Shown here one piece after another: positions 8,549 to 51,405 of a stretch of DNA of 64,000 nucleotides. The position numbers and the translations under genes are program-made. The number at the start of each line of letters is the position of its first letter. Positions within the stretch are counted from its first letter, which is position 1. This DNA is from Octopus sinensis (Eukaryota). The stretch is from the NCBI RefSeq assembly GCF_006345805.1, contig NC_043010.1, forward strand, positions 23,312,001 through 23,376,000. Direction: 5' to 3'. The notes beneath the pieces were generated by a model. The model did not search any database. It had not been told where the DNA came from and worked only from the letters and a program-made list of their open reading frames with translations.

Positions 8549-8948
8549 ATTTAAAAATAGGATAAAATCTTCATAAGAAATTATCAAGTAGTTAACGTGA
8601 AAAACATCATAAGAGAAAAAATCTGTTAATTTTTTCCACTTGAATATATTTATTTATATTATATAGAAGGCATTATTACACATAAATGCCGCACGCTAGG
8701 AGGGATTCTTAAAGTCAAAACTACCAAAATAAACATATCGTACCGAATGCAAGTCTCGAAGCAAGTCATTTAAAAACAGAATTTAGCTGCAAATCACCAG
8801 TGATTTCGTAATTACCGAAACGCAATTCGAAAAAGGCCGCCATTTACATAGATGTATGAGGGGTGAACCGTTCTATATGCTACGGTGGATACGATGGCTG
8901 TTCGTCTGGTATGTTGATTTTGTTCATTCATTATAAATCTTGAACCAT

Positions 8949-9013
8949 GCTTGCACCGATGAGTAAAGGGCGCAACCACTGCGCTGATTACGAAATCACT
9001 GGTGATCTGCAGC
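8949..9013 (+). ncRNA. Type I hammerhead ribozyme (CCGAUGA variant)
   Basis: gcttgca-CCGATGA-gtaa[agggcgcaaccactgcgctga]ttac-GAAA-tcactggtgaTC-tgcagc; stems I, II and III all pair. Confidence 0.75.
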
Positions 9014-9132
9014 TAAATTCTGTTTTTAAATTACTTGCTTCGAGACTTGCATTCGGTACGATGTTTATTTTGGTAGTTTTGACTAGCGTGCGGCATTTAT
9101 GTGTAATAATGCCCCCTATATAATATATATAT

Positions 9133-9192
<60 letters not shown>

Positions 9193-9332
9193 TATATATA
9201 TATATATAATTCAAAAATATAAGGAATGGCCATAATAGGACATTCGACTCACTAGCAAGAGCAGCCAAACTCAAACCGCTAATAGTTGTAATTCTGAAAT
9301 TGAAAGAGAAATAAAAACGTTTACCCTTTCAA

Positions 9333-9425
9333 CTCTGGACTATGCATAGTTTCGGCAAACTTTAGTAAACAAATTAATTAAATTAAATTAAATTTATTTC
9401 CAACTGGCGTGCCTCGTCAGCAGAG
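9333..9425 (-). ncRNA. Type I hammerhead ribozyme with long stem II insertion
   Basis: ctctg-CTGACGA-ggca[52 nt]tgcc-GAAAC-tatgcata-GTC-cagag; palindromic stem III. Confidence 0.85.
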
Positions 9426-9817
9426 AAGCCAAGGACGAACATATATCCACGAGGCGATGGTAAGGAAGCCTCAAGTCTATATGCTATAAATTTTCAAAAT
9501 CTACCGCAATCGCGCGGTCAACTCAGCAGCAAATATAAACTGCTGATTTAATTTCAAAATTAGCCAAAAAATCATTAATTAATAAATATAAGGCTAGCAA
9601 AATATTCCAGAAAAAATTCTCCGCTACCAGCGGTCCGGTGAGAAGAAAAAGATAGTCAAAAATATAAGGAATGGCCATAATAGGACATTCGACTCATATT
9701 ATATAGTCTTTGACTATCTCTTCTTTCTCACCAGACCGCTGGTAGCGGAGAATTTTTTCTAGAATTTTTTGCTACCCATATATTTATTAATTATATACAT
9801 GTATATGTATACATATG

Positions 9818-9882: not shown

Positions 9883-9991
9883 CATACATACATACATACA
9901 TATAAATATGTGTGTGTGTGTGTGACCGCGTGTGTATCGTTGGCGATTTTCTTTCTCTCTCTTCCCTTCCTTAGACTTTTCCTTTTCCTAT

Positions 9992-10026
9992 TTTTCTGAC
10001 GAAGAGCCCCGCTCGAAACGTTGAAT
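9992..10026 (+). ncRNA. Minimal PLE-type hammerhead motif
   Basis: ttttCTGACGA-a-gagc-ccc-gctc-GAAACGTT-gaa. Confidence 0.65.
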
Positions 10027-10727
10027 CCTTCTTTCTTTCCTTTCCTGAGCGTCCAATAACACTATACTTCTTCCACTTCCTCGCGTTGTTGTGTTTTCTC
10101 TTTGTTATGTTTGGATTAACTATATATACTTACATACATACGTACATATATATATATAATACAGAAATGGGACAAGAACGCAAAATATCCAAACAATTAG
10201 GTGATACAAAAAAGGGGACAACAAAACATCCACACTAACGATACAAAGAAAACAAGGAAGGGTCATTCGGAGTTATCTTCTTCAGTCGAGTTCCAGATTA
10301 TCTTCGCAATTTCGGTTGGTTATACACGCGTGTGTGTGTGTATCTTTTTAATCACATATACTTAATGTATATGCTTCCTGTGTTTATCGGTGGGCGCGGT
10401 GAATTATACTCTCTCTCAAAGCACCGGTTGTTAAAACACCTCGGAGTCATGAATAGGCAAAATAAATCACCTCTAGTCCCTTCTTGCAATGATGTATATC
10501 GATGTTTTACCAGTTTTTTAGGTTGTCAGCATTACGTACACGAAAGGATCGGATGCGAATGATCTCCGCTAGAACACGACGTATATGCTCATGGCTTGCA
10601 GAACCATGTGCGCGTATTCCCGGCAAATGCATACGTATTTGCTGGTGGGCTGCTCCTGGTGCCGTGCGTAATGTCTCAAAGCGCCGGGTGTTAAAACACC
10701 TGAGAGTCATGAACAGCGAGGTGGGGT

Positions 10728-15060: not shown

Positions 15061-15106
<46 letters not shown>

Positions 15107-15134
15107 AGAAAAAAGCAACAAGAATGGATTAGTT

Positions 15135-15226
15135 GTTCAGTACAATTGTTTCATACGAAGAACAGCTTTATTAAAAGCTGCAAATATTGCAGCAAATACA
15201 AGTGTCCCGTATTCATCAGCCAAAAC
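15135..15226 (-). ncRNA. PLE pLTR hammerhead with extended, branched stem II
   Basis: ttgg-CTGATGA-atacggg[~50 nt]ttcgtat-GAAAC-aatt-GTA-ctgaa; same sense as the ORF. Confidence 0.75.
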
Positions 15227-16314
15227 ACTTATGAGTTTTCCAAACATCCTAGCGGGTGAGGCTACACTCATGAAGTATCGAAGAGAGTTCTATAAAAAGC
15301 AAAGTCAGATTGTAAGCAGACTTCAAAAGTTCACTAATGATGCACAGTTTTATAAAAGGTTTTAAAAAAAGTTTGTTAGCTTCACAGAAAAGGTAAATCC
15401 ATCCATAATAATGCAGGTGTAAATTCCGGAGATATGAGGAGATATTTCATACTCAGAGACGATGAATTTATCCATAATAATGTAGATGTAATTTCCTGAT
15501 ATATGAGAAGATGCTGATCACATTTCTATTCATTTCACAAAACTACTATGTTGGAGTTATATTGTCTAAAAGAAGTTAGTGAAGCAGAAAACCGCCCAAA
15601 TAGGGCATTATGGGACAACTGAGAGGAAGGGGTGTAAGTACACAACCTACACAGAATAGTTTATTTCTGTGGTGACAGAAAATCTAGGTCAGAGTTGCAG
15701 GAATCTGAGATTTATAAAAGAGAACATTACTTTTGACCAGCATACAGCTGTTAACTGCCACTTCTACAGAGTTAAAAGCAGATATAAGAATATAAAGAGA
15801 ACAAAAGGAAGTATCAAAGGGGTCAAAGGCTATCAGTAGAGGAAAATACGTTAAGAGGTTTAAGTGCAATACAAGAACAGGAGGTTAATTATTTATTTAT
15901 TTATTTATTATTGTTACTATTTATACAAATGTTTATACATTGTATGACAGACTTTAGGTCTATACCTAGAGGTCAATTAATTTCTATAGTAAAAGGTGTG
16001 AGAGTTTTGTTTATTCAAAAAATAGTGAAAATCATAGTGAAAATTCCTTATATTATTATTAAGGGAGTAGCATTACTTATTAAACTTAGAATAGAATTAT
16101 GAAATATTAGCAACTTATTTGATTTAAGTTGGATTAATTAAATTAGATTAAAATTAGATTAAATTAAATTAACTATATAGTCAATTAAAATTTTTGGTAA
16201 CGTACAAGTACCATTTATTTCTTTGTGTCCTAAAACAGGTACTGTTAGAAAGAAAGAACACCAGTGGAAGAGCTCACAGATATCTATTTAAAATACGATT
16301 ATTCTATACGATTT

Positions 16315-19118
16315 TTATTTAAAATATTTAAGAGTCTTAATTTTCGCGTGAATACAAGATTGACCTAATTCTATACGGTTATTTAACAAATTTTTATTTT
16401 TTCTATGCCTTAGAATTTCATGTCTCCATGGAGCAGAGTTGGCAATCTACCCTGTTATTTCTATAAGGCATCGCTCTTCTAACTATTTCCCAATTAAGGT
16501 TATATTTAATATTATTATTTTTGAGTTCCCAGATCTTACTCGAAAGTGTGGTGCAACCAGCTTTATGACGTAACTTAAATGAGGAGATATGGGTGCTAAC
16601 TCTTTGTTTAAATTTTATAGTACAACCTAAATAAAAAACATTTGCTATTCTCAGTAGTTATGATACATTTATAGATTACGTTATTTACCCCACACAGATC
16701 AGGTGCCGGGCATTTTGACTTAATTCTACAATTACACCTAGGGGGATCATCTTCAGATGTAGAATTATTTAAGGATAAATATCCCATATTGTTGCTATTC
16801 TGATTATTATGAGTATATTTATCGTTATTATAGTTAATGTTGTTATCTAAAGCAGTGTTATCATTTATCGATCCGTTTATACTATCATTCAGTTCTATAG
16901 CCCTATCATAATTACTCACATTATTGGTATTGCTACTATTGTTGCTTGTATTTATATCCGAATGCATATTGCTGTTATAGATATCAATGTTGTCTTCATT
17001 CCCGATATTGTCTCTATTAGCATTGCTCATATTATTAACATTATTAATCCTATTAATATTAATATTATTATTAGTTATTCCATGGTTATTGATGCTACCT
17101 TTGTTTTGATAGTTACTATTATTGTGGTTATTATTTTTATTTTTGATAATATTATTACAATTGTTATTGGTATTCATGTTGGTATTAGTCTTATTATTCC
17201 TGGCTAGCTTAATGTTTTTATTATTAATCTTAGCTATTATAGTGGACATATTTGGGAGGGTTGAATAAGAAATCCTAACCGTTCTTTTAGAAATTATTCT
17301 ATGATATTTATGAGAGGCTGGGAATTTTTTTTCTAGAATTACTTTGAATCTGCCTTGTATATTCGATAAAATCGCACAGTTGAAAGGAATATTCAGCCAG
17401 ATTATATCTTTCTTATTAAATTTCCTTAAATTAGAATTAGGGTTAGTTGAATTATTACTAATCCCACCAGAGCTATTATATTTATTACTATTATTTGTAT
17501 GCTTTTTTTGATTTATCTAAATTGGTTTTATCAGAGTTACCTATGCTCTGGTCTATATTTTTATTCTTATGATTAGGCTTGTACGTTAGATTTGTTGCCA
17601 TCGTAAATCTATTTCTACTTTTATTTCGGGCGCGATCTATATTGTTGTTTACGTGGTTACTGCTACCTCCTTTGTTAGGAATATGTAAGCTCTCCTTATC
17701 AATAAAGGTAATCTTTTGGTTGTATCCTGCCTTAGATAACGCCGCATTATAATGCTCAGAATGAGAGTTAAATATATCATTATTAGATGATAATTTAGAG
17801 ATTCTTAAGGAAATATTTCTAACCAAAGATTTAATTATATTTGGGAGATGATTGGATAATTTATTTACGTATCTCGTGATTTCACCTTCCTTTCTAAATG
17901 GGTAATGCAGCTTAGAGTTAAGGTCTAATGTAATATCTAGGAAATTGACTATTTTAGTGCCAGGTTCATAAGTTATGCTAAGGTTGAAATCTTTAAAGAA
18001 CCTATTAATTTTCTTTCTAATCCGTTCAATGCTAGATTTATTATTACCAGGAATAACAAACAGAGCATCATCCCTGTATAGACCACCTTGTAATTCCGGG
18101 ATCTCCTTTTTTATGCACTTTAATATATACGCACCTACCAAATAGTTACCACAGCCGAATCACTAGAACCCTTGGGTATATCGAAATTATTAGGGGTATC
18201 TGCTCTAGTCCATAATTTTCCTTCAAATTCTATAAATGTTTTTCTAGCTAATAGCACTATGTCGATTTCCTCTCTAGATATGAGGGAGCGATTCATAGCA
18301 AATATAAGTGATTTATTTAGCAAAATGGGGGAAATACTAGAGTAATAATTATTCATGTCGAACTGAATAAAGGAAAGACTACTAGTATTAGTTAGAGAGT
18401 TAAACCATTTTAATACTTCATCGGTATTTAGCCAGAGACTTAAGGGAAGAATCGGGGTTATTTGGGGTAGAACAGTATCCAGGATAGATATACTAAGCCG
18501 GCCAATATCTGACTTACCGAAGGGTTTTCCATGAAATTCCTTTTGTGGTCCTTAAGGTTGATTCTAGGTTCACATGGTTTAAGCGCTCCGTTCTATCCGT
18601 TAAATTGTATCTTTCCGTAATTTCCTTCATTTCTAGGTTTATTTTTTCAAATTTTTCTTTGTAGTAATTATATATTTGGAGTTGAGTTCCTTCTTAATTA
18701 GCTTGCTATAAAGAGTGTAGTCTACTCTATACAGATTACCAGTTTTATCCGCTGGCACTAAGATTCCTTGTTTATTCCGAGTTGAATAAATAAAGTTTCT
18801 GAGATGTTTGAGGTGAGGGTTGTATCTTAACGGGTGTTCTTTGAATTTAATATCTTCTATAAGATTCAGTAAATCTTTTTCGAAATTTTCCAGGAGTGGG
18901 TTCGGAGGCGGGCTCTTTCTGCTTCTAAATATTCTCCCATAGTTCTTATCAGTATTCCTTACTTGAGGATCCTTTTTCCGCTTGACATCAAAATGGTAAG
19001 TTTTCCATTTAATTCTTCTAATGAAGTCATTAATCCTATGGATAAGTAGCCAGATATATTCATCCTAACTCTGTAAGGGGATGTCTTTAGGGGAAAACTC
19101 TATGTTTACTTTCTCCAT
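16315..19118 (-). pseudogene. PLE RT-GIY-YIG ORF, disrupted by stops and frameshifts
   Basis: MEKVNIEFSPKDIP...FIRRIKWK, VPADKTGNLY, PKGSSDS, GGLYRDDAL, VNFLDITLDL, CNCRIKSKCP...C, VIYKC...YLGCT, LNNRIELGQSCIH. Confidence 0.88.
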
Positions 19119-19201
19119 TCTTGTTGAGAAATTAAGTACCAGAAAAACATACAGACTATATGGGAATATATTTTCAGTAAAAACAATTAAGATTCAAGTG
19201 A

Positions 19202-19293
19202 GTTTTGGCTGATGAATACAGGACACTTGTATTTGCTGCAATATTTGCAGCTTTTAATGAAGCTGTTCTTGGTATAAAACAATTGTACTGAAC
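19202..19293 (+). ncRNA. Inverted, mutated copy of the pLTR hammerhead
   Basis: CTGATGA at 19209; GAAA has become AAAA. Confidence 0.55.
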
Positions 19294-19456
19294 AACTAAT
19301 CCATTCTTGTTGCTTTTTTCTTGTTTATAATCACCCCACATTATTTTATGTTTAATACCATATAGATTTCTGGTGCATCTAAGTTAAGTACTGCATTCAT
19401 GTGAATTCATTGGAATTCACTTGAATCTTAATTGTTTTAATGAATATATATATCTA

Positions 19457-20339: not shown

Positions 20340-20344
<5 letters not shown>

Positions 20345-21615
20345 CCACCACAACCACCACAACCACTACCACCATCATCATCATCATCATCATCATCATC
20401 ATATTTTCTTTTTTGTCTTCTTTTCCTTCTTTTTCCTTCTGCTCGTCGTTGTCCTATAATCTAACCCTGAAAATAGAATTGTAATGTATAGTCAACCTGA
20501 TTCCCTTTTTTCCCTATTCATTTATAAGTTTCATATTTTGATTATAATTGTATTTTGTCTCTAACTACACCTATGGGTTTACTTTTGCTTGTAAACTGCT
20601 GGAAATGACACATCACTTTGAGTAAACATGCTTACATGATGGTAAGATCTAACGAAAGACTTATTTAAACATTCATCTGAAGAAGTGCATTTTAAACTTT
20701 TCAAATGCATTATAATGATAACACAACATCTCAACAATGTACTAAGGAGGTAAAAAGATATCGAAACAATTGTAGAAATTTTAAAATAAAGAATTTCTTT
20801 CATTTCATTCGTGGCTCTTATAAGTTTGTTTTCAATACATATATATACCTGCAATTATTGGGGCCCTGGGATATGTAACACACTGCCAAAATACCAATCT
20901 TGAGAAATTAGGCATTCTCAAAACCAGAAAGGAGAAACCTGATTCGAAGACTACAGATCTAATCCATTACTGGAACTGTAAAAATCTTTGGAACTTGCCA
21001 GAAGTTTATCATTTAAATACATATGAGCATGTCTAGATATGCAAATGTATGCATGAGAATACATATATGAAACAAAGCATACAAATCTGCACACATAAAA
21101 CAAATCTGCACACATATATAAAATACACAAATCTCGTTGTTGATGTTGAAATTCCAATGAAGCACATTTGGGTCGAGGTTAGAAACCGGCTTTTTCTCTG
21201 CATACATACATACATACATACATACATACATACATACATACATACATACATACATACATACATACATACATAAACTTTCAGTCCATACACGCCAAATCAA
21301 TTTGAATCTTTCTCAGTCGAAAGACTATACCATGTTCTCCGTTTGTTTGTTTCTTTATTTTTGGGGGATATATTTTTTTTGTCTTTGCACTTAGCTTAGA
21401 CTTTTTTGGGGACAACAAGATCGAACCATCTCAAGTATAACTGTTCTCCGAAACGGTCGTGACTTCTGGTACATGACTGCAGAATGAAAGCCAAGAATGA
21501 CCCGTCTTTTTCTGCCTGCCCTTCTAAATATTGTTTCTCTAGAATGCCTTTCTGTCGCCTATCCGTCCGTACGTTTTAGTGCCCTCTATTGCGTTTTTGT
21601 CCTATTTATACATAT
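20340..21615. repeat. Left arm of a ~1.3-kb inverted duplication
   Basis: Reverse complement of ~26715-27995; mirrored ORFs in the track. Confidence 0.92.
20818..21270 (+). mobile_element. 3' end of an RLE-type (R4/Dong-like) non-LTR retrotransposon ending in (CATA)n
   Basis: Translates IPAIIGALGYVTHCQNTNLEKLG...IRRLQI*SITGTVKIFGTCQKFII* (stop 21014-16), typical of the restriction-like endonuclease C-terminus; 3' UTR followed by (CATA)n. Confidence 0.7.
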
Positions 21616-22396
21616 ATGTATATATGTGAACAGGAATTAATCTTCTCTCTTCGCTCTAATATGCCATTTGGTCTCAACTCTCCCCCTCCACATCTAACCC
21701 CCCTCTCCCCCCTCCTCATCTAACCTCCCCCCCGACTCCTACTTCTCTTCAGTCCTTCATCCTTTCACCCCTAAACCTCTTCCCTTCTTCCCTCTTTCTC
21801 CCTCCCTCCTTCTTCCCTCTTTCTCCCTCCCTCCTTCTTCCCTCTTCCCCTTCCCTCTGCTCCCTCACTCCCCTTCTCTCTCTCTCCCCCTCTCCCTCTA
21901 TCCTCCCTCCTCCCCTCCCCTCCCCCCCTCTCCTTCCTTCTCCTCTCCTTCCTTCTCCTCTCCTTCCTTCTCCTCTCCATCCTTCTCCCCCCTCCCCTCC
22001 CTCCTCTTCTCCTCTCTACACTACACCATACGACTTTACACATCATATATACATACACACGTCTAGACCTCTCATACGCACTAATACCCCCTCTTCTCCT
22101 CTCTCTACACTACACCATACGACTTTACACATCACATCATATATACATACACACGTCTAGACCTCTCATACGCACTAATACTCTCTCATACACACACACA
22201 CACTCTTCTCATACACACACACACACTCTTATGTTTGAGCGGGGGTCATTCAACCCTATTATCTCCCCTAATTTCGCTCTTGCGTCTCATGTTTGATCTT
22301 TGACTTCTGGCCGAAATCAGATCGCCATGTTGATTCGCTAGCTTTTGCACGCATACTTTTTTCTCTCCTTCTTTCTGTGTTTTTTTTCTCTGTGTA

Positions 22397-23233: not shown

Positions 23234-26200
23234 TCACTCCTGTACTCTTGCAAACACTTTAATGATGTGGGAGGTGAGTGAGATTGGGCGATAGTTGACT
23301 GCGAGGGATCTGTTTCCCTGTTTGAAAACCGGGATGACCGACTGGGTTAGAAACTGTTTCGGTATATAACCTGCGTCTAACGAATTTCTCCAGAGGTTGG
23401 TCAGAGGGACTGCAAGTTGGTGTCTACATTCCTTCAGGAGACTAGCGGGGAATCTATCAGGGCCTACAGCAGAGTAGTATTTGACCTCATTTATTGCTGC
23501 TACGATGTCAGTAGCAGTGAAGGTTATGTCTGAGATTTTATGTTGGGAGTTAACTTCGTTCGCTTCTCTTACGTCAATATCAGTGGGAACACTGAAGACA
23601 GAGCAGTATTGTTTCTGCAGTATTTCTGCCATTTCTTTAGCAACGTGTTGGGGAATGCCGTTATCATCAATCAATGGCCCAATGGGTGAGACAGTAGTTC
23701 TATGTTTATTTGCATTAGAATAGAACACTTTTGGGTTCTGTTTGATGTTTTTGATTACCCACTGTTCCTCCACAGCTCTTTGATTTTCAATGGAGGTTTT
23801 CATGTCGGTCTGCAGATGAAGTTTTTCCAGCTCTAGTCTTTTCATTGTTGTTGAATGTGGATGTTGTGTGTGGGAATATTTTAATTGGTTGATTTTTTGT
23901 TGAGTCTTTTGATGCGCCTGATGAGTGTTTTTTTCTTTTTAGGGAGCCGGTTTCTGCTTGTGTTAGTAGATTTCGTGGGAGCGTGTTTAGAGCATGTATA
24001 GGTGACAATGTTTTCAAAGTACTGCCACGCGGTCTCAATATGGGAGGAATTGAGAGTAAAAGACCAGTCGATGGAAGACAGATCCTTTCTGATTGCTCCC
24101 CAGTCCGCTTTGTGGAAGTTTATGTTGTCAAATGGTTGCCATGGAGTGGGATTGGCTGGTTTGGTTTTTATATGACGGGAATTAAAATTGCAGAGTACCA
24201 TGTCGTGGTCTGAGAGAAGAGTTTTTTCAACTAAAATACTGTGAACGAAGCTAGAATGATTGGTCAATACCAGATCCGAGGTCGTTTTATTCTGCCTCGT
24301 TGGTTCGAGCTCTAGCTGAGTCAGGAAATACTCATCCATCAGATTAAAGAGCAGTTCTGCTGCTGTTCTATCTGATGTAGAGCACTTGCCTAACTTCAGA
24401 GTATTTGTGGGCCAGTTCACATGAGGGAGGTTAAAATCACCCATCACTAGTATGTTAGCGGAGTGGTACTTCCGAAGGACGGACTTGACTTTGCTAAGGC
24501 ACTCTTCAAAGCACTTTAGAGGTGCCTGGGGAGGCCTGTAAAGACCAACAATGATTATGTCCTTGGCCTTGCTGAATACTGATACCGATTCACAGTAGCC
24601 ATTGGAAAATATGTCCTCGGCATCAAGTGAAAAGGAGTCATGGATAAAAATGGCTGTCCTTCCCATATTTCGGTCTGTGCGATCCGCACGAACAATGTTG
24701 AAATCTTTTATTTTCACCTCGGCGTCCATATGGGTGTTGTTCAAGTGAGTCTCTGTAGGGATAAAGAAAGGGAAGCAATGTGCCATTTCGGCAACCAACT
24801 CTCTATTTATGGGAGCTTCCATTTTTGGGCAGTAATTCATGGGTTGATGCGACGTACATTTAACAGGAATGTCGAGGTAAGGGAAGTTGATGTTTGCATT
24901 GTTCTAAGTTATGTTTTATGTTGTTCAGTGGTACGAATGTGGGTAGTTCTTGTATGGAGCTGTGTGTGTATGATTTTCTTGTTGGTAATGGGTGTGTGGT
25001 CCTTGTGATTTGCATAGGTGGTTGCTGATAGCTCGTTGGATCTCCTGGCTTAGGTCGGCCTTCATATTTTCTAGGTAAGTTAGTAAAAAAGAGTTACCTC
25101 TTTGGTTTGCCACTTGGTCAGAGGATGCATATTTCATATTGGTGTTATTTGGTGTTACGGTTTTTTCATGGTTCTGTCTACGTTGTTTGATAGTAGGAGG
25201 GGGGAACGTGGTTGTATTTTGTTCTTGTTGTTGTCTTAGATTTCCTCTGTTGCTGTTTAAATTTATTCAGGCTGTAGTAGCAGTAGTATTAGAGTGTTGT
25301 TGTTGTTGTTGTTGCTGTAGCAACAGTGAAACTTGACTTGTAGCAGAGTGTTGTTGTTGTTGTTGTAGCAACAGTGAAACTTGACTTGTAGCAGAGTGTT
25401 GTTGTTGTTGTTGTAGCAACAGTGAAACTTGACTTGTAGCAGAGTGTTGTTGTTGTTGTTGTTGTTGTTCTTGTAGCAACAGTGAAACTTGACTTGGTCA
25501 CAAACTGTGCCAAACTTCTGTGTCACAAAGGATGTACCTGAACCCAGAATGCAACCACCATCATCTGAAGGTCAGTTGTTTGTTGCTGTTGAAGTGTCTC
25601 CTGACCTGTTGGAATTTGGTCATTTGGTGCACTGCATTCATTGGCAAGAATGGCTTCTAGTGTTGCCATGTGCGCGTGGAAAATAGGAAATATTCTTTTA
25701 ATCTCTTATTTTATTTTCGTCCTGTTTTACAGATCTGTAAATGGATTGTTTCGTTAAGTCCTCTGTTATTTTACTGTAAACATTAGCTTCGTTGTGATGA
25801 ATGAACCAAGCGTTTATCATTGCAGTAATTTCATTTTCAACCCAGCGGCGTTTTGAATATTATTGGCCATATTCAGTGGGACAGTATTGTATAATATATA
25901 TATGTATGTGTATGCGTGTATATGTATATGTACACCAGTTATTGATGGCTTGATGTAAAATAGTGAATACGTCGTTGAAAAGTTTGTGTCGATATACTCG
26001 GTATATACTTGTGTGTGGGAGAGCTCTGTGTATTTAGTACAATCAGGATGAGCGGTGTGTTTAATAGAGATCAAGGAAAAAGAATGAAGAATTGTACTCA
26101 CGGGACTAGTTTTAGAACTAGTCTTGGGTTTAGTTTTGGTTTATATTTCTTTCTCCAGGTTGTATATAGATTTGTATAAATTAATCCTCGGATGGTAGTA

Positions 26201-26370
26201 AAAAAGTAGAATATTAGGATTGTAGAATTCAAAAGTTTTGAGACTAAAAACAAGGAGAGTTTCTGTTGGCTTGAGTTGAAATATGCTTCTTTGGTTACTG
26301 ACGGGAGCTGTGAAAAGATATTGACGGGAGCTATGAAAAGTACGTCTTGTCACGACGAATGCATAAAATG
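23234..26370 (-). mobile_element. CR1-type LINE, 5' portion (5' UTR, ORF1 remnant, AP endonuclease, start of RT)
   Basis: TETHL, VRADR, GLYRPP, MGDFNLPH, SDHD endonuclease motifs; GPD...NYRPISLTS start of RT; frameshifted. Confidence 0.9.
25290..25496 (-). repeat. ~48-57-bp tandem repeat x4 inside the LINE ORF1 region
   Basis: Unit 'caagtcaagtttcactgttgctacaacaac...actctgcta', reading as LLQQQQQHSATSQVS in one frame. Confidence 0.85.
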
Positions 26371-26714
26371 TATGTATATAATGCATATATAGTTATATTC
26401 TCTGTGTGAGTATATATCTATGTATATATATATATGTATATATATGTATGTATATATAATATGTATATATATATGTATATATATGTAATATATATGTATA
26501 TATATGATATATATATTTATATAATATACATATATATATATATACATATATATATATACATATATATATACATATATATTCATATATATACATATATAAC
26601 ACATATATATTTATATACATATATACATATAAAATATACATTATCTATATATATATATATATATATAATATATATATATCTATATATATATATATTATAT
26701 ATATACATATATAT

Positions 26715-27995
26715 ATATATGTATAAATGGAACAAAAACGCAATAGAGGGCACTAAACATACGGACGGATAGGCGACAGAAAGGCATTCTAGATAAAATA
26801 TTTAGAAGGGCAGGCAGAAAAAGACGGGTCATTTTGGCTTTCATTCTGCAGTCATGTACCAGAAGTCACGACCGTTTCGGAGAACAGTTATACTTGAGAT
26901 GGTTCGATCTTGTTGTCCCCAAAAAAGTCTAAGCTAGTGCAAAACACAAAAAAAAATATATCCCCCAAAAATAAAAGAAACAAACAAACGGAGAACATGG
27001 TATAGTCTTTCGACTGAGAAAGATTCAAATTGATTTGGGCGGTATGGACTGAAAGTTTATGTATGTATGTATGTATGTATGTATGTATGTATGTATGTAT
27101 GTATGTATGTATGTATGTATGTATGTATGTATGTATGTATGTAGTATGTATGCAGAGAAAAAGCCGTTTTCTAACCTCGACCCAAATGTGCTTCATTGGA
27201 ATTTCAACATCAACAACGAGATTTGTGTATTTTATATATGTGTGCAGATTTGTTTTATGTGTGCAGATTTGTATGCTTTGTTTCATATATGTATTCTCAT
27301 GCATACATTTGCATATCTAGACATGCTCATATGTATTTAAATGATAAACTTCTGGCAAGTTCCAAAGATTTTTACAGTTCCAGTAATGGATTAGATCTGT
27401 AGTCTTCGAATCAGGTTTCTCCTTTCTGGTTTTGAGAATGCCTAATTTCTCAAGATTGGTATTTTGGCAGTGTTTTACATATCCCAGGGCCCCAATAATT
27501 GCAGGTATATATATGTATTGAAAACAAACTTATAAGAGCCACGAATGAAATGAAAGAAATTCTTTATTTTAAAATTTCTACAATTGTTTCAATATCTTTT
27601 TACCTCCTTAGTACATTGTTGAGATGTTGTGTTATCATTATAATGCATTTGAAAAGTTTAAAATGCACTTCTTCAGATGAATGTGTTTAATAAGTCTTTC
27701 GTTAGATCTTACCATCATGTAAGCATGCTTACTCAAAGTGATGTGTCATTTCCAGCAGTTTACAAGAAAAAGTAAACCCATAGGTGTAGTTAGAGACAAA
27801 ACAATTATAATCAAAATATGAAACTTATAAATGAATAGGGAAAAAAGGGAATCAGGTTGACTATACATTACAATTCTATTTTCAGGGTCAGATTATAGGA
27901 CAACGACGAGCAGAAGGAAAAAGAAGGAAAAGAAGACAAAAAAGAAAATATGATGATGATGATGATGATGATGATGGTAGTTGTTGTGGTGGTGA
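26715..27995. repeat. Right arm of the ~1.3-kb inverted duplication (includes a minus-strand copy of the RLE-LINE 3' end)
   Basis: Reverse complement of 20340-21615 with scattered substitutions and indels. Confidence 0.92.
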
Positions 27996-28403
27996 TTGGA
28001 GTGGTGGTGGTTGTGGTGCTTCCTCGTCGGAAACCATGTTGGGTGTCAGGCAGCAAGTCATTTTCTCAATCTTATATATATATATAATATATATATACAT
28101 ATATATATACATATATATATACATATATACTAATATATATATATATATTATACATCTATATATACATATATACAATATATATATATATATATATATTATA
28201 TAATACCTATATATATATATATATACATATATACATTATATATATAACATATATACATTATGTACCTTATAACATATATACATATATACATATATATACA
28301 TATATGCATATATTTAATATATGTATATATATATGTATATATGTATATATTTAATATATGTATATGTATATATATATATGTATATATGTATATATGTGTA
28401 TAT

Positions 28404-28439
<36 letters not shown>

Positions 28440-28734
28440 GTATAATATATGTATGTATATATATATATATATATGTTTATATATATATATGTATGTATAT
28501 ATATATACGTTTTACATATATATATACATATATATATATACATACATATATATATATATATATACATACATATATATATATATACATACATATGTATATA
28601 TATATGTATATATATATATATATGTATGTATATATACATATGTATGTATATATATATGTATGTATATATATATATATGTATGTATATATATATATATATG
28701 TATATATGTATACGTATATATGTATATATATATA

Positions 28735-29133
28735 TAAAACATTATTGCTGAATTGAAGAAATGGAGCTGAACGCAGATTGAACAGAAATCGTTTTATTTC
28801 ATTCTACACGTGTTTCGAAAGGCACAAATTACCAAAATCCGATTGAATAATGGGACCATATTGTGTCTTTCTCTTCAGGAAGAAAATAGGAAATCCGTTT
28901 CGCCATGGGCTCTTAGGAGCATAGTTCGATTTGTTTTTGCTCCGCCTCTGTTCTGTTTTTGTTTTTCCAACGGATTTCCTATTTTCTTCCTGAAGAGAAA
29001 GACACAATATGGTCCCATTATTCAATCGGATTTTGGTAATTTGTGCCTTTCGAAACACGTGTAGAATGAAATAAAACGATTTCTGTTCAATCTGCGTTCA
29101 GCTCCATTTCTTCAATTCACCAATAATGTTTTA
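28735..29133. repeat. 165-bp near-perfect inverted repeat (28735-28899 / 28969-29133), 69-bp spacer
   Basis: One mismatch seen by eye; identical ORF starts on both strands in the track. Confidence 0.95.
28980..29073 (+). ncRNA. Type I hammerhead with extended stem II (mirror copy on minus at 28795-28888)
   Basis: tattttcttc-CTGAAGA-gaaagacacaa[...]ttgtgcctttc-GAAAC-acgt-GTA-gaatgaaata. Confidence 0.85.
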
Positions 29134-29353
29134 ATTTCAATTATCCGCACCAACGCACGGTTGCAACACCATATGGTTGTACCTCCAACCGTGCTGTTTA
29201 CTGCTGTGATTTTTGCTACTAAGGTATCGGTTAAACTTTGATTAATCTACTACAAGATTATTCATCTTTCTATTTCACATAATATATATATATATATATA
29301 TAATATATATATATATATATAATATATATTATATATATGTAATAATAATAATA

Positions 29354-30240
29354 TGCAGGATAATTATATGCAGTTTAATGCTGAAACGTTCCAGGCCCTG
29401 CGCTACCAGCATCCAGAACTAAATATTAAACTTACAGGATACAGCGGTCCACAGGGAATTTCAATCCCAGAGCCTAAGTCTGTGAGGGACCTGGGTATCG
29501 ACATGAGTGATGATACCTGTTTCCAAGTGCACATTACCAGGATGGCGACAAAGTGCAGACGACTGGCTGGGTAGATCCTAAGAACATTCAGAACCAGAGA
29601 TAAGGAAACCATGATGGTCATCTGGTGGACATTCGTTCTCAGCCGCCTCGTTTACTGCTCACAGCTATGGTCATCCACCAGTGTAAAATTAACAGCGGAC
29701 CTTGAAGCCATCCAGAGAAGATTCACAAAGAAGATCGTCTCTTTGCAACAGCTCAGCTACTGGGAAAGGTTGAAACAGCTAAGACTCTACTTCCTGGAGA
29801 GAAGACGGGAGAGGTATGCGGTAAAATATATACCTGGAGGATCCTGGAAGGAATTGTGCCAAATTTTGGCATTGTAAGTTACACCAATGCTAGAACGGGA
29901 CCAAACTGCATAGTGCCAAAGATCCCAGCAATGCCATCACGCTTCAGGATCAGTTTCTGCAACAGCCTGGGTTTCAAAGGCCCACAGCTTTTTAATATTC
30001 TCCCAGAGAGTCTGAGGAACTTGCACAAAGTAGATGTAGCGGTTTTTAAATCAAGCTGGACATGTTCCTGTCAAGAGTCCCAGATGAACCTACTTCACGG
30101 CAAGAGGTGCAAATGGGAGTAGCTATATCAAACTCCATTCTTCACCAAGTGCCACATATTAGACGAGGTTCTTCGTAATAACAGTGTAGCACAAAACGGC
30201 GGTGCATCAGCATGGCCGCAGCTCAGAGCTAAAACTAGAG
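29354..30240 (+). mobile_element. CR1-type LINE 3' fragment (family B)
   Basis: MQFNAE..VRDLGI, YCSQLW, LERRRERY; ends 'ggcggtgcatcagcatggccgcagctcagagctaaaactag'. Confidence 0.88.
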
Positions 30241-30323
30241 GGAAAAAATATATATATGTATGTATGTATATGTATGTATATCTATATGTGTATATATATA
30301 TATATGTATATATGTATATATGT

Positions 30324-31779
30324 ATACTTTGATACTTTGATACTTTGATAGGTTTCGGCCATTATTGGCCCAGGCCATGTCTAACTTAATAGCACCACCT
30401 GGTGAAGTCTTTCAAGTCAGAATTTGGGCACTATGGCCCACTCAAGTAGAGAGTTATTGTTTACAGAGACATATCCGGGTGTAGGGGGTTTATCCGGGAT
30501 TTCTTGAAGGAATCTGTCCAAAGACTTCTTGAACCCTATAGGGTCAGTTTCTTTTTTAATGTGTTTTGGTGTAATGTTAAAGAGAGCGGGGCCAATTGAA
30601 GGTGAAATAATTGTGCCGTATTGTTGTTATGCGATGAGAGTGCGATTTTTGTTTTGGGCGGATGGCACGGGGCCCAAGCCTTGGATGTACCTTAAAGGTG
30701 ATGCCAACATCATTTGGGCAATGCTGATGGAATATTTTCCACATCATGCAGATGATGTAGCGCTCACGACGACGTTGGAGAGAATAGAGTTTTAGCTTTT
30801 CTAGTCGACCCCAATAGTCGAGGCCTATCATGCCATCTATCTTTTTTGTGATTGCCCTTGAGGTGCTTCAACTTTTATGATACCTTGTATTGTGTGGGGA
30901 GACCACAGTGGACAACAAGTATCAAGGTGGGGTCGGGAAAAAGTGGAGAAGAGAAGGATAATGGTGTGGATATCTCTCGACTGGAAAGTTCTGAGAATCC
31001 AGGAACAATTCTGCGGGCCATGTCAACTTTGGTGTTTATATGAGTGGCCCAGCTTACGGTTGTCCCACACTCCCAAGTCTCTGATGTTGTTGGACGCCGC
31101 GAGAGTTTCACCTGAAGGAAGGGAGTATGGGAGTTTCAGGGCATCCTATTTCCAAAGTGGATTAATTCAAATTTATCCTCGTTCAGCAGCATATTGTTTT
31201 TTTCTGCCCATTGGATAACAGCCAGTAGATCTGACTGAAGGCATGTCCGGTCACTCGCCTCATTTATGACCTTCTGTAGCTTGGAATCATCTGCAAAGAT
31301 TTTTATGTTGCTGTACTTGATGATGTCATAATGTCATTAATGTAATGATGAAAAGAAGTGGGCCCAGCACAGTGCCTTGCGGAACGCCACTACTGACTTT
31401 GGCTGGGCTTGATTTTAACCCCTTCAACTACAACATGTTGAGATCTGTCTGTCAGGAAACACTTGATCCTTTCAGTAACTTTCCAGAGACACCAATGTTG
31501 GATAGTTTTTTCAATAGGATCTTGTGATCGACCCTGTCGAAGGCCTTACTGAAATCAAAGTAATGACATCGGTGTTGGAGCCCTCTCCCAAAGCTCTCAA
31601 AATGTCATCAAAGTGATGCAGGAGCTGCGTTAGGCAGTCCCTTCCATTACGGAACCCATGTTGGTTAGAGATCAGCCGTCTGTTGCTTTCCAGAAATTGG
31701 GTTATTCGAGATCTCACCACCCTCTCAAATATGCTTTCCAGAAATTGGGTTATTCGAGATCTCACCACCCTCTCAAATA
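30324..31779 (-). mobile_element. CR1-type LINE 3' fragment (family A-related) with (TCAAAGTA)n tail
   Basis: [38 protein letters not shown]; 3' UTR shared with 49740-49800. Confidence 0.88.
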
Positions 31780-31817
31780 TATATATTATATATGTATATA
31801 TTATGTATATATATATG

Positions 31818-31848
<31 letters not shown>

Positions 31849-32012
31849 TATATGTATATATGTTTATATATATATATATGTATATATGTATGTATATGTA
31901 TATATATATATATGTATATATATGTATATGTATATATATATGTATATATATGTATATATATATGTATATATGTATATATGTATATATATGTATATATGTA
32001 TATATGTATATG

Positions 32013-32044
<32 letters not shown>

Positions 32045-32181
32045 CTATACATATATACATATATACATATATATATACATATATATACATATATATATAT
32101 ATACATTATACATATACATATAGTATATGTAGTAAATATAATATATTATATGTATATATGTATATATATATGTATATATAT

Positions 32182-32213
<32 letters not shown>

Positions 32214-32231
32214 GATATATATATATATATC

Positions 32232-32262
<31 letters not shown>

Positions 32263-32282
32263 TAGTGTATATATATATATAT

Positions 32283-32402
<120 letters not shown>

Positions 32403-33790
32403 GAGAAAATAACTTGCTGCCTTATACCCAACATGCTTTCTGACCAGAAAGAAGCTGCTTAACTCAACTCCTACAACACTATGACTGGGTGCTGAAACGA
32501 CTGCTCAACCACTCAAATGTTGAAGTGATATATCTCGACTTTGTAAAGGCCTTTGATAAAGTCGATCACGGAATGATATGTCACAAACTGCGTGATCTTG
32601 ACATAGTTTGAAAATTGGGAGAATGGCTTCATGACTTTCTGAAGGATAGAAGTCAGGTGGTAGTAGCCAATGGGGCCACTTCCATTAACACACAAATAGT
32701 GAGCGGTGTTCCGCAAGGCACTGTTATGGGACCTTTACTGTTGATAATGGCCCTCTCAGACATGCCCTCAGCCACGCAGAGAGTCACGATCACAAGTTAT
32801 GCAGATGATACAAAAGTTTCACAGGCAATACAGAACCCTGAAGTCACTAAGCACCTGCAATGTTAGCTGGACAAAATATACAAGTGGGCTGAAAAGAATA
32901 GCATGCAGTTCAATGCTGAAAAGTTTCAAGCTTTATGCTATCAACATGCAAAACTAAATGCAATACCCAATGAATACACTGGACCTGGAGGGATTGCAAT
33001 CCCAGAGGCACAATCAGTGCGAGACCTGGGTATTTACATGAGTGATGATGCAACCTTTCATGTGCATGTTGCTAAATAGGCAATGAAATGTAGGTGGCTG
33101 ACCGGATGGATTCTTAGAACCTTTAGAACAAAAGACCAGGAAACCATGATGGTCCTCTGGAGGACACTTATCCTAAGCCACTTTGACTATTGCTCTCAGC
33201 TATGGTCACCATCCAGTGTCAAGTTAATCACAGAACTTGAGGTGATCCAACGAAGCTACACGAAGAAGATAGCCTCTATGTAGCATATAAGCTACTGGGA
33301 AAGACTCAAGAGATTAAGACTCTATTCCTTAGAGCATAGGCGAGAAAGATATGCCATAATATACATCTGGAAGATCCTAGAAAGACTTGTCCCAAACTTT
33401 GGCATCGAGAGTTACACATATGCCAGAGCTAGGCGCCACTGCATAGTGCCAAGGACTCCAAATTTGCCATCAAGATGTAGGACGAGATACTGTGATAGCC
33501 TGGGCTTCCGAGGCTCACAGCTCTTCAATATCCTCCCGAAGAACCTAAGAGACCTGCATGGGGTGGATGCAGATGTCTTTAAAATAAAACTAGATCTCTT
33601 CTTGTCAGGTGTTCCAGATGAACCAACTTCACGGTAGGAGGTGCAGATGAGGGCAGCTGCATCGAACTCTCTCATGCACCAAATGGCAGTTGCTAAAAAG
33701 CATTCGTGAAGTAAAATCATGTAGCAACACCAAATGGCGGTGCCCCAGCATGGCCGCGGCTTGTGATCTGAAACTAGATAAAAATAAAAA
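32403..33790 (+). mobile_element. CR1-type LINE RT/3' fragment (family B-related)
   Basis: [31 protein letters not shown]; multiple stops. Confidence 0.9.
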
Positions 33791-37019: not shown

Positions 37020-38520
37020 CACTATGACAGAGAAAGAGAAAGAGACTGAGCAAGAGAGGGACTATGAGAGAGAGAGAGAAAGCGAGAGTGAGAGTGAGTG
37101 AGAGAGGGGGAGCAATGTAGCAAGCAAGAAATTCAATAGAAACGAGTAACGGCAATAGAAGAGCTAAGAGGATGCCATGTTTTATCATGGCTACATTTAT
37201 AAACTAATTTTGATGGACAGAAATAAAAACAAAATAAAACGATATTAACGTCTTATAGAATAACGAGTGTATATTTAATTATCATTGACCATTTTTTATT
37301 AGTATTTCTACTATTTTACTCAACAACAAACACGTTATTAGTACTTTATAGTCAAGTTAAGGAATTTTGATCCATCCTCTCAAAGAGAAAATAAACTTGT
37401 GTTTTTGATGAGTTTCGTAAAGTCGGGACAGCCTTCATTAATCATAATTTAAATCTAATTATCATTCGCTGTTGTCGTTGTTATTGTTAATGGCCACACG
37501 CCCCCCTCCTGGCTCTTACACCCCTGTCTCCTTCAAAATAACCAGCTTTATCGGTTTGTACTAGTTGCAACAGTAAATGACGCAATAACATAAAACCAAA
37601 AGAGTTGAACACAAATCTTGCAGTGAATCGATCAATAAGAAAATCGAACCAACTGAGAGAGGAACAAATGGGAAAGAAGAAGCACACTGAGTGAAACATC
37701 GCTTTAATTAGATGTTGACACACAAGTNNNNNNNNNNNNNNNNNNNNNNNNNNNNNNNNNNNNNNNNNNNNNNNNNNNNNNNNNNNNNNNNNNNNNNNNN
37801 NNNNNNNNNNNNNNNNNNNNNNNNNNNCACTATGACAGAGAGAGAAAGAGACTGAGCAAGAGAGGACTATGAGAGAGGAGAGAAAGCGAGAGTAAGAGTG
37901 AGTGAGAGAGGGGAGCAATGTAGCAAGCAAGAAATTCAATAGAAACGAGTAACGGCAATAGAAGAGCTAAGAGGATGCCATGTTTATCATGGCTACATTT
38001 ATAAACTAATTTTGATGGACAGAATAAAAACAAAATAAAACGATATTAACGTCTTATAAATAACGAGTGTATATTTATTATCATTGACCATTTTTATTAG
38101 TATTTCTACTATTTTAACTCAACACAACACGTTATTAGTACTTTATAGTCAAGTTAAGGAATTTGATCCATCCTCTCAAGAAAAATAAACTTGTGTTTTT
38201 GATGAGTTTCGTAAAGTCGGGACAGCCTCATTAATCATAATTTAAATCTAATTATCATTCGCTGTTGTCGTTGTTATTGTTAATGGCCACACGCCCCCCT
38301 CCTGGCTCTTACACCCCTGTCTCCTTCAAAATAACCAGCTTTATCGGTTTGTACTAGTTGCAACAGTAAATGACGCAATTAACACTAAAACCAAAAGAGT
38401 TGAACAAATCTTGCAGTGAATCGATCAATAAGGAAAATCTGAACCGAACTGAGAGAGGAACAAATGGAGAAAGAAGACACTGAGTGAAACATCGCTTTAA
38501 TTAGATGTTGACACACAAGT
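37020..38520. other. Assembly gap (100 N, 37728-37827) with unmerged ~700-bp overlap on both sides
   Basis: 37020-37727 is repeated at 37828-38520, differing mainly by small indels. Confidence 0.9.
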
Positions 38521-45377: not shown

Positions 45378-45595
45378 ACTAATGTAGGATTTTTTTTTTT
45401 TCGGGAAAAAAAATTTTATCAATGGCCAGCATATCAAAAAATACCTTTAAAGGTTAAATTTATAAATAATTTACAAGATAAGGGTAAAAGAAAAATTCTA
45501 ATGCCAAATATGCCGAAAAAAAGACAAGACTTTTCAATAACCGTTATAATTTATGCGTCTCGAAACAAACCGATAGAAATCTCTAAAAAATTCGT

Positions 45596-45658
45596 TATTA
45601 CCGTATTGGTCCAATTTCGGGGTTAATTAATAAGTTTTTCCCTCTTCAGCGGCAAATA
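45596..45658 (-). ncRNA. Type I hammerhead ribozyme
   Basis: tatttgccg-CTGAAGA-ggg[aaaaacttattaattaac]ccc-GAAA-ttggaccaa-TA-cggtaata. Confidence 0.75.
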
Positions 45659-45920
45659 CGCGAGATATAAATGAAATACTTACTCATACCCATGGAAAAA
45701 GCAAGCACCAAGTCCAGAGCAGACCTAAGTACCCCAAATATATCCAAAATAGAAAAATCTTCGGCACATCTCGAGAGACACGTATGATTCGAACTAGAAA
45801 CTTTCACAGAATGAGAGAATCCGGAAGTGAAACACTATTCAATTTATAACTAATGTAGGATAAAATTATTTTTGTTTCCGGAAAAAAATTATACATATAT
45901 ATATCTATCTCTATTATCTA

Positions 45921-46846: not shown

Positions 46847-47095
46847 ATATATATATGTATGTATACATATATATGTATGTGTGTGTATGTTTGTGTGTCG
46901 GTGCTTCCCCACCATCACTTGACAACTGATGTTGATGTGTTCACGTCCCCGTTATCTAGCGGTTCGACAAAAGACACCGACAGAATAAGTCCTAAGCTTA
47001 CAAAGAATAAGTCATGAGGTCTATTTGTTCGACTAAAGACGGTGCTTCAGCATGGTCGCAGTCAAATGACTGAAACAAACAAAACAGCAAAAGAA
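46622..47095 (+). mobile_element. CORE-type SINE with expanded internal microsatellite
   Basis: Head at 46622-46735; tail at 46890-47095. Confidence 0.8.
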
Positions 47096-47120
47096 TATAT
47101 ATATATATATATATATATAT

Positions 47121-49818
47121 GTTGGTCTTTACAGGCCTCCCCAGGCACCTCTAAAGTACTTTGAAGAGTGCCTTAGCAAAGTCAAGTCCTTCCTTCGGAA
47201 GTACCACTCCGGAAACATACTAGTGATGGGTGATTTTAACCTCCCTCATGTGAACTGGCCCACAAATACTCTGAAGTTAGGCAAGTGCTCTACATCAGAT
47301 AGAACAGCAGCAGAACTGCTCTTTAATCTGATGGATGAGTATTTCCTGACTCAGCTAGAGCTGGAACCAACGAGGCAGAATAAAACGATCTTGGATCTGG
47401 CACTGACCAATCACTCTAGCTACGTTCACAGTATTTCAGTCGAAAAAACTCTCCTAGCAGACCACGACATGGTACTCTGCAATCTTAATTCCCGACATAT
47501 AAAAACCAAACCAGCCAATCCCACTCCATGGCACCTATTTGACAACATAAACGTCCACAAAGCGGACTGGGGAGCAATTAGAAAGGATCTGTCTTCCATC
47601 GACTGGTCTTTTACACTCAATTCCTCTCATATTGAGACCGCGTGGCAGCACTTTGAAAACATTGTCACCTATACATGCTCTAAACACGCTCCCACGAAAT
47701 CTACTAACACAAACAGAAACCGGCTCCCTAAAAAGAAAAAAAAAACACTCATCAGGCGCATCAAAAGACTCCAGAAAAAAATCAACCAATTAAAATATTC
47801 CCACACACAACATCCACATTCAACAACAATGAAAAGACTAGAGCTGGAAAAACTTCATCTGCAGACCAACATGAAAACCTCCATTGAAGATAAAAGAGCT
47901 GTGGAGGAACAATGGGTAATCAAAAACAACAAACAGAACCCAAAAGTGTTCTATTCTTATACAAATAAGTATAGAACCACTGTCTCACCCATTGGGCCAT
48001 TGATTGATGATAACGGCATTCCCCAACACGGTGCTAAAGAAATGGCAGAAATACTGCAGAAACAATACTGCTCTGTCTTTAGTGTTCCCACTGATACTGA
48101 CGTAAGGGAAACGAACGAAGTTGACTCCCAACACAAAATCTCAGACATAACCTTCACTGCCACCGACATCGTAGCAGCAGTAAATGAGGTCAAACATTAC
48201 TCTGCTGTAGGCCCTGATAGATTTCCCGCTAGTCTCCTGAAGGAATGTAGATACCAACTTGCAGTCCCTCTGACCAACCTCTGCAGAAATTCGTTAGACG
48301 CAGGTTATATACCGAAACAGTTTCTATCCCAGTCGGTCATCCCGGTTTTCAAACAGGGAAACAGATCCCTCGCACTCAACTATCGCCCAATCTCACTCAC
48401 CTCCCACATCATTAAAGTGTTTGAAAGAGTGTTAAGATCAAGGATAGCTGACTTCCTGGAGACCCACAAACTCCTAAATGCAAATCAGCATGGCTTTCGC
48501 TGTGGCAGGGACTGTCTAACACAGCTCTTACACCACATTGAAGATGTACTCAAAGCCTAGGGAACAGGTTCGAACTCTGACGTCATATATCTTGACTTCA
48601 GTAAAGCGTTCGACAGGGTAGACCATAACATCCTACTCTCAAAATTGGCAAACGTTGGAATCCGTGGAAAAGTTCTACACTGGATTAAGTATTTCCTGGC
48701 GAATAGAACACAACATGTTGTAGTTGATGGAGTCCACTCAAACCCAGCAAAAGTCACCAGCAGTGTTCCCCAGGGAACTGTTTTGGGTCCGCTACTCTTC
48801 ATAATTTACGTAAACGACCTTTCCAGTGTCGTACATTACTGCAAAGTGAAAATATTTGCTGATGACACTAAGCTCCAGCAAATCGTCAATGAAGAAGAAG
48901 ACCGAACTCAACTCCAGTCTGATCTATATGCTGTGAGTCAATGGGCAGACAGAAACATAATGCAACTGAATGAGGGAAAATTTGAGCTGATGCATTTTGG
49001 AAGAAATTCCTCACTAAAACCACCATACTCTCTTCCTTCAGGGGAACCGCTCACAGCCTCTAACAATATCATAAACCTGGGTGTAATTGTTGATGACGAT
49101 CTCAGTTGGAGTGCACACATCAACAAGAAGGTCGATATAGCTCGTAGGATGAGTTCCTGGATCTTAAGAACTTTCCGGTCCTGAGAACAAGGTGTCATCA
49201 TACCACTTTTTTCCTCCTTTGTACGGCCACACCTTGAATACTGCTGCCCACTGTGGTCTCCTCACACAAGACAAAACATCTCAGAATTGAGTCACCCAAG
49301 AGGGCACTCGCTAAACAAATTGAAGGCATGGCTGCTCTCGATTATTGGGATCGCCTTAAAGCCTTGACACTTTACTCCCTCCAGCGTCGACGTGAGCGGT
49401 ACATCATTTGTACGATGTGGAAAATATACCGCCAACTTTGCCCAAACGACCTAAACATTAGCTTCAAGGTTCATCCAAGACTTGGACCACGGGCTATACC
49501 CAATTCAAGATCACAACATACATGTACACTGCAACATAATTTCTTTTCCTCAACAGGCCCTGCCCTATTTAACATTGTCCCGAGGGAGATCAAAGAGGAA
49601 AAGGATCCCATCAACTTTAAACGGAGTCTGGATAGATTCCTTCAAAGAATACCAGATAAGCCACCCATAATTGGATACCATTTACCCAACAAGAACTCAC
49701 TACTTGAACAAAACTTGACTTAAACAGGATTCGAATAATCCTATCAGGTGGTGCTATTAAGTTAGACATGGCCTGGACCAATCTTTGGTCGAAACATATC
49801 TAAGTTTATCTAAGTCTA

Positions 49819-49823
<5 letters not shown>
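47121..49823 (+). mobile_element. 5'-truncated CR1-type LINE (family A), ORF2 pseudogene
   Basis: Endonuclease C-half, RT ([29 protein letters not shown]); in-frame stops at 48558 and 49182; short repeat tail 'tatctaagtt'. Same family as 23234-26370. Confidence 0.93.

Positions 49824-49855
<32 letters not shown>

Positions 49856-51369: not shown

Positions 51370-51372
<3 letters not shown>
50516..51372. mobile_element. Hammerhead-bearing fold-back element: 365-bp unit + partial repeat + 300-bp inverted tail
   Basis: 50516-50880 restarts at 50881-51075; 51074-51372 is the reverse complement of 50575-50874; lies within (TA)n. Confidence 0.88.
51151..51208 (+). ncRNA. Type I hammerhead (CCGAUGA); mirror copy on minus at 50740-50797
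   Basis: ctgctactctagg-CCGATGA-agga-caatga-tcct-GAAA-cacggt-GTC-cctagatgcag. Confidence 0.85.

Positions 51373-51405
<33 letters not shown>

Follow-up and report, generated by a model that had tools for sequence, protein, structure and literature searches.

Architecture of the element

The window, that is the whole stretch of DNA that was analysed, comprises 64,000 nucleotides of Octopus sinensis (contig NC_043010.1, positions 23,312,001 to 23,376,000 of the forward strand; positions below are counted from its first letter). An inverted repeat at 28735-29279 consists of two 165-nt arms separated by a 69-nt spacer. The arms are identical at 164 of 165 positions, and their sole mismatch (28748 versus 29120) lies 14 nt from the outer end, which bears out the arm length and single mismatch that an earlier sequence-only reading of this DNA had given. 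The element, referred to below as the stub, and its flanks contain the following features.

28073-28734, no strand: long, degenerate (TA)n microsatellite forming the left flank, likely the insertion target
28735-28899, minus: left arm, a short copy of the 3' end of the element, abutting (TA)n with TA common to the junction
28795-28888, minus: type I hammerhead motif identical to the plus copy, with C3 at 28878 and a predicted cut after 28805
28900-28968, plus: spacer, T-rich on the plus strand (AT skew -0.68), which is likely additional 5' sequence of the plus copy
28969-29133, plus: right arm
28980-29073, plus: type I hammerhead motif, with a predicted cut after A29063 (GUA)
29055-29062, plus: palindrome ACACGUGU, which gives a 2-bp helix III closing an ACGU tetraloop in a monomer and an 8-bp duplex (-10.3 kcal/mol) between two molecules
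29134-29279, plus: extension of 146 nt that only one copy has, likely the tail of a Penelope-like retrotransposon (PLE)
29155-29194, plus: 9-bp stem-loop in the tail
29280-29340, no strand: (TA)n microsatellite forming the right flank

The minus copy abuts the long TA repeat; the plus copy continues for 146 nt and then meets the second TA repeat. Helix I is predicted to extend further, through pairing of 28969-28974 with 29082-29087, and the base of this extension falls at the inner end of the right arm. The spacer is T-rich on the plus strand, as is the sense strand of the arm and tail, and therefore it likely belongs to the plus copy. The tail folds at a z of -3.0. Its small hairpin, previously placed at 29157-29196, starts at 29155, and nine pairs were reached in 6 of 500 shuffles. 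No PLE reading frame is present in the stub, in which the longest stop-free frame has 97 codons; the two open frames of this length are mirror images across the arms. Further copies of the family of the stub were not found within the 64-kb window. The insertion is likely young, as had been proposed, but one mismatch in 165 positions could equally reflect repeat homogenization or assembly.

Hammerhead motifs of the two arms

A type I hammerhead requires CUGANGA, GAAA, and NUH, and both arms contain CUGAAGA, GAAA, and GUA. In the plus motif, the CUGAAGA core occupies 28990-28996, GAAA occupies 29052-29055, and N17 is A29063. Helix I is formed by 28980-28989 and 29064-29073, with nine pairs and one C-U mismatch. 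Helix II, formed by 28997-29007 and 29041-29051, has ten pairs including G10.1-C11.1 and one A-C mismatch, and closes a 33-nt loop II. Helices I, II, and III can form with 9, 10, and 2 pairs, respectively, with helix I open. The presence of a hammerhead motif in each arm, as previously claimed, is thus confirmed by the complete core and the three helices. The description of the motifs as intact and canonical holds for the sequence only, since helix III is short and palindromic and the active fold is rarely predicted. The stem II of about 11 bp with a long loop needs only the correction to ten pairs and one mismatch; the stem III that had been drawn does not form in a monomer, where two pairs are available, and its eight pairs arise only between two molecules.

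A hammerhead descriptor matched the window five times, whereas 100 block shuffles averaged 0.07 matches, with at most one. Shuffled arms matched in 5 of 20,000 cases, and in 0 of 20,000 when helix III had to be palindromic. Hammerhead models of Rfam gave no match at gathering score in the whole window and none at E <= 10 in 28700-29320. At gathering score they also missed the other hammerhead motifs of the window, and therefore the models do not cover this variant. The 15 Rfam matches at E <= 10 near the element include no hammerhead and are all under gathering score; the miRNA matches, far under it, were rejected, because TA repeats and a long hairpin account for them.

Metazoan PLEs carry type I hammerheads that, as the available part of PMC4209133 presents them, share with those of the stub the full core, the G10.1-C11.1 pair, a long helix II, and a palindromic helix III. 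By contrast, the motifs of the stub, which are known from sequence alone, have no bulged base before helix II, a 33-nt loop II, and a helix I of 9-10 pairs.

Related structures inside and outside the window

Three more similar structures are present in the window, and no significant shared sequence was found between them and the stub.

15099-19445, minus: decayed near-full-length PLE with several frameshifts and stops
50516-51376: partial tandem and inverted copy between TA repeats, young, with arms 99% identical and a tail of about 55 nt
59697-59904: older back-to-back pair belonging to another hammerhead-bearing repeat, with arms 69% identical

Alignment of homologs to 15099-19445 follows the order RT, cysteine linker, and endonuclease-like region, with a tblastn E of 4e-92 to an intact homolog, and an asparagine-rich stretch lies near 16750-17200. 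Pfam named neither the frames of this neighbouring PLE nor six of their homologs, and the assignment of this element to PLEs therefore rests on motifs and tblastn. Searching with 120 homologs by tblastn gave no match in the window outside 16.0-19.5 kb. We read the element as probably Neptune-like from the linker described in the accessible text of PMC8557442, rather than from a tree. Its 3' hammerhead (C3 at 15219) ends in (TA)n, and a 96% identical inverted copy of the hammerhead at 19202-19329 has a core broken by a change of G12 to A. The tail is about 115 nt long, and the beginning of the main body recurs in its last 22 nt. A similar overlap between tail and spacer was not found in the stub, where the longest shared stretches are 8 and 5 nt. 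The 50516-51376 structure contains two identical outward-facing hammerhead-like motifs (51164, plus; 50784, minus) with CCGAUGA in place of CUGAUGA. In the 59697-59904 pair, the core is kept in the minus copy and the plus copy is damaged.

A scan of 34 aligned homologs against a genome contig collection identified 16 PLE loci (L001-L016). The loci are located on contigs in bacterial assemblies, eight of them in a single assembly, and are likely contaminating animal host DNA. In seven of the 16, a sense-strand hammerhead lies 97-200 nt after the ORF match; a match in L007 looks spurious and was excluded from this count. Back-to-back hammerhead pairs occur in three of the loci, and several of the contigs carry TA microsatellites. 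The structure at L010:6035-6315 is nearly a twin of the stub: its two 105-nt arms differ by a single mismatch, one of them ends in (TA)n, and the other is extended by a tail of about 60 nt. Nearly the whole of contig L001:1-3734 is one inverted PLE duplication (1519 bp, 92%). Searches for a prokaryotic or phage origin were negative: an exact 26-nt pattern had 0 matches in the genome contig collection, and blastn of the 380-nt copy gave no match in plasmids or phages.

A covariance model was built from seven outside motifs only, after three of the ten first aligned had been left out (two misaligned and one with an insertion). Double changes affect 6 of its 15 pairs, a count as high being reached in 0 of 500 shuffles, which cannot be read as a probability, given the relatedness of the sequences. 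The two motifs of the stub are the first of four matches of the model in the window (18.7 bits; E about 0.02, which is weak and roughly calibrated). The third match, at 45587-45666 (17.0 bits), is probably due to chance, and the model missed the hammerhead of the neighbouring PLE at 15219.

Origin of the inverted repeat

The stub is very probably a recent, heavily 5'-truncated PLE insertion in a TA microsatellite, with two outward-facing hammerhead-bearing ends, one of which is 146 nt longer than the other. The traits of PLE insertions that it displays are a head-to-head inverted 5'-truncated copy, a one-sided tail, and (TA)n at both ends. To these are added the palindromic helix III of PLE-type hammerheads and the weak first two matches of the covariance model. 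The stub contains no PLE frame and has no significant DNA match to ORF-bearing copies (best E of 1.2 in the window and 0.36 in the 16 outside loci), and therefore its assignment to PLEs, which we regard as probable, rests on architecture and motif type. An autonomous PLE was rejected because the stub has no frame for a telomerase-like RT and GIY-YIG endonuclease. A target-site duplication is unreadable inside the TA repeat.

The architecture has precedents in the cited papers, which are represented here and below by the available parts of their texts. PLE insertions are described as biased to microsatellites and 5'-truncated, often with an inverted truncated copy and a one-sided tail of 30-40 bp (PMC8557442). 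Head-to-head is the commonest kind of PLE inversion (PMC3846280), dual hammerheads of Schistosoma lie on opposite strands about 100-700 bp apart (PMC4209133), and inverted pseudo-LTRs with 3' extensions are routine features in curation (PMC8969392). Penelope families are listed in Octopus vulgaris (PMC13282606). The endonuclease-bearing Neptune, Poseidon, and Nematis (PMC8557442, PMC3846280) share with the stub head-to-head inverted 3' ends with a hammerhead each, a tail on one copy, and microsatellite flanks. The stub differs from them in having no ORF, in the absence of a palindrome at the junction, which the rotifer cases have, and in its 146-nt tail, which is much longer than the published 30-40 nt, the ORF-bearing neighbour having one of about 115 nt. 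Helix II and its loop span 55 nt in the stub, compared with 11-24 nt in the convincing outside motifs. The arrangement is already in print, and the stub probably adds another PLE example. The sequence-only reading had treated the locus as a stand-alone curiosity: its motifs and duplex stand, but the hairpin matches the end structure known from PLE insertions, and three more of the kind lie in the window.

It is also conceivable, but improbable, that the 380-nt plus copy represents one complete monomer of a non-autonomous retrozyme (a circular RNA), which PLE proteins inserted together with a partial copy in inverted orientation. Animal non-LTR retrozymes (PMC7229834; 10.64898/2026.07.22.740005) resemble the stub in their type I hammerhead with a 2-bp helix III, in being non-coding, and in a size of about 380 nt, which is within the published 170-400 nt and close to the mussel repeats of about 350-390 bp (PMC7229834). 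Furthermore, an origin of retrozymes from PLE ends is argued for in a preprint (10.64898/2026.07.22.740005). However, retrozymes are arranged in head-to-tail tandems, and the stub is inverted: none of the 367 14-mers of the plus copy recurs on the plus strand in 26000-32500. The folding model does not point to a highly self-paired circle either, since the circular fold of the plus copy is not unusually stable (z of -1.3, or -1.1 with the spacer assigned to the other strand; 60 shuffles each).

A chimeric read or an assembly artefact is a very unlikely source of the hairpin. The assembly of the window looks imperfect, with a gap of 100 N at 37728-37827 and adjacent duplications of 98% and 96% identity, and repeat collapse could homogenize near-identical arms. 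Nevertheless, the arms stop sharply, the flanks are not mirrored, the 69-nt spacer is unique, and the outer ends differ in that only one has a tail. The same layout with diverged arms (96% and 69%) is found elsewhere in the window, and it recurs in other assemblies.

Still less probable is that the locus is a hairpin RNA adopted by the host, or an antisense-locked ribozyme switch, and is kept by selection. The predicted duplex is very stable, both cores are unmutated, and PLE copies of rotifers yield small RNAs (PMC3846280). However, a fresh insertion would give high identity anyway, the older examples in the window have decayed arms and the broken core at 19202-19329, and a scan of 26 ORFs of the window identified no host gene. 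A foldback (miniature inverted-repeat) DNA transposon, with the arms as 165-bp terminal repeats and TA as its target, is hardly credible. Such an element would fit the long inverted repeats, the short spacer, the missing ORF, and the TA at both outer ends, which is indistinguishable from the microsatellite. It leaves unexplained the hammerhead and the element-like 146 nt by which the right arm continues to the second TA repeat, and the neighbour that has an ORF and shares this layout encodes an RT and no transposase.

Proposed mechanism of insertion

On AT-rich DNA, the purified PLE protein of a lizard nicks both strands and extends them, and it begins reverse transcription at two RNA sites bounding the tail (PMC11167929). 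It uses uncut RNA, has no need of hammerhead cleavage, and assists this cleavage (PMC11167929). The PLE insertion at the stub could have proceeded in a similar manner. A PLE protein made elsewhere would nick both strands of the TA repeat, and each nick would prime reverse transcription on the uncut RNA of the element, from two start sites 146 nt apart (corresponding to 29133 for one cDNA and 29279 for the other). Both cDNAs would cross the uncut hammerhead and end upstream of the core, at distances of 21 and 90 nt, before being joined head to head. According to an alternative model, PLE inversions arise by self-priming on an antisense template (PMC3846280). Because the stub has a unique spacer, self-priming fits palindromic junctions, such as that of L010, better than it fits the stub.

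We suggest, tentatively and as a rather doubtful extension of the PLE reading, that stubs record how PLEs insert. In such twin priming, both strands of the TA repeat would prime one RNA, each at its own start site, and the shorter copy would stop at the base of helix I, where the template begins or is blocked, so that the fold of the ribozyme, and not its cleavage, sets the breakpoint. In the twin priming of LINE-1, two primers from the two target strands produce an insertion with an inverted part. The inverted part of LINE-1 insertions is a different stretch of the RNA, whereas both parts of the stub copy the same hammerhead region from two start sites. The 22-nt overlap of the tail of the neighbouring PLE with the start of its main body is as twin priming predicts. 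In four of the seven pairs measured, the match between the copies is lost no more than 21 nt upstream of the core (at 21, 7, 9, and 15 nt); the sample is small, and it is biased because the pairs were found through their hammerheads. The values for the other three pairs are 41, 60, and 660 nt, of which 41 and 60 are underestimates compared to BLAST; the pair at 50.5 kb shares about 90 nt. If the breakpoint is set in this way, each insertion is a ready-made hairpin that could silence its own family.

A literature search, which covered mostly subscription-free texts and had supplements (where the family may be listed) outside its scope, found no paper on the family of the stub. By title, nothing on the topic was found in the literature on hammerhead ribozymes and cephalopods, and the term twin priming is absent from the PLE-focused papers that the search returned.

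Predicted folding and activity of the RNA

The whole element has a predicted fold of -324.5 kcal/mol (z of -30.8), in agreement with the 165-bp duplex foreseen from the sequence. The following estimates concern secondary structure, with tertiary contacts omitted from the model. In the isolated segment 28975-29080, which had been suggested for a cleavage assay, the active fold is predicted for 0.5% of molecules. Helix II has a pair probability of about 0.99, helix I of 0.1-0.2, and helix III of 0.02, and in the lowest-energy fold the core is paired with the strand of helix I. In the full hairpin the active fold is predicted at about 1e-89, the duplex being favoured by about 126 kcal/mol. With loop II open in both, an active dimer is predicted at -31.7, compared with -16.6 for two active monomers. 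Because the arms carry their motifs on opposite strands, a single transcript never has two sense copies that could pair with each other. The earlier statement that a transcript of either strand carries one ribozyme preceded by its antisense is correct if transcription starts outside the element.

Read-through RNA would, according to the folding model, hide the sense motif in the duplex. The palindromic helix III is predicted to favour cleavage as a same-sense dimer. Small palindromic helices III impede cleavage of monomers, and the motif of a Schistosoma PLE without helix III was cut only as a dimer or trimer, and weakly (available text of PMC4209133). Hammerheads with a 2-bp helix III are described in invertebrates, and a cloned mussel retrozyme repeat is cleaved at about 0.1 per min (excerpts of PMC7229834). 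By analogy to this repeat, whose motif type has a 2-bp helix III, an isolated arm of the stub may cut slowly. After insertion, the ribozymes at the locus are predicted to be passengers, and read-through RNA that folds into the duplex could be edited or diced.

As a locus the stub matters little, being one of four similar structures in 64 kb with a published layout. It is, however, a clean and short specimen for studying the formation of inverted ends and the role of the hammerhead, which are open questions in the available parts of PMC8557442 and PMC11167929. Where a genome has many young stubs of this kind, thousands of copies would be available for counting breakpoints, tail lengths, and the output of small RNAs.

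Other sequences of the window

The window is animal DNA with many repeats, and also contains a SINE that we take to resemble octopus SINEs. LINE-type fragments are located at 23244-24903, 29368-30239, 30273-31729, 32903-33778, and 47070-49872, and several of them adjoin TA repeats. Endonuclease and RT domains were detected by Pfam in the frames at 23.9-24.9 and 47.1-49.2 kb; the other fragments were recognized by DNA similarity or appearance only. The near-identical adjacent duplications occupy 1075-4483 (98%) and 37020-38520 (96%, around the 100-N gap) and are possibly assembly redundancy. A 1.3-kb sequence is present as an inverted duplicate at 20343-21627 and 26705-28009 (95.5%). Its GAAAC-AAUU-GUA motif is hammerhead-like but did not pass the test for helix II, and the sequence is possibly an old PLE end. 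Its use as an empty-site control was rejected because it ends before the TA tract.

Two further hammerheads lie at 9-10 kb. The motif at 9330-9430 (minus) is single and well formed, with a GUC site, a helix III that is a 12-nt palindrome, and a loop II that is long and AT-rich; inverted repeats are present near it at 8645-9137 and 9576-9793. The minimal hammerhead at 9990-10030 (plus), with CUGACGA, a short helix II, and an ACGU palindrome, belongs to a pyrimidine-rich repeat that follows a microsatellite.
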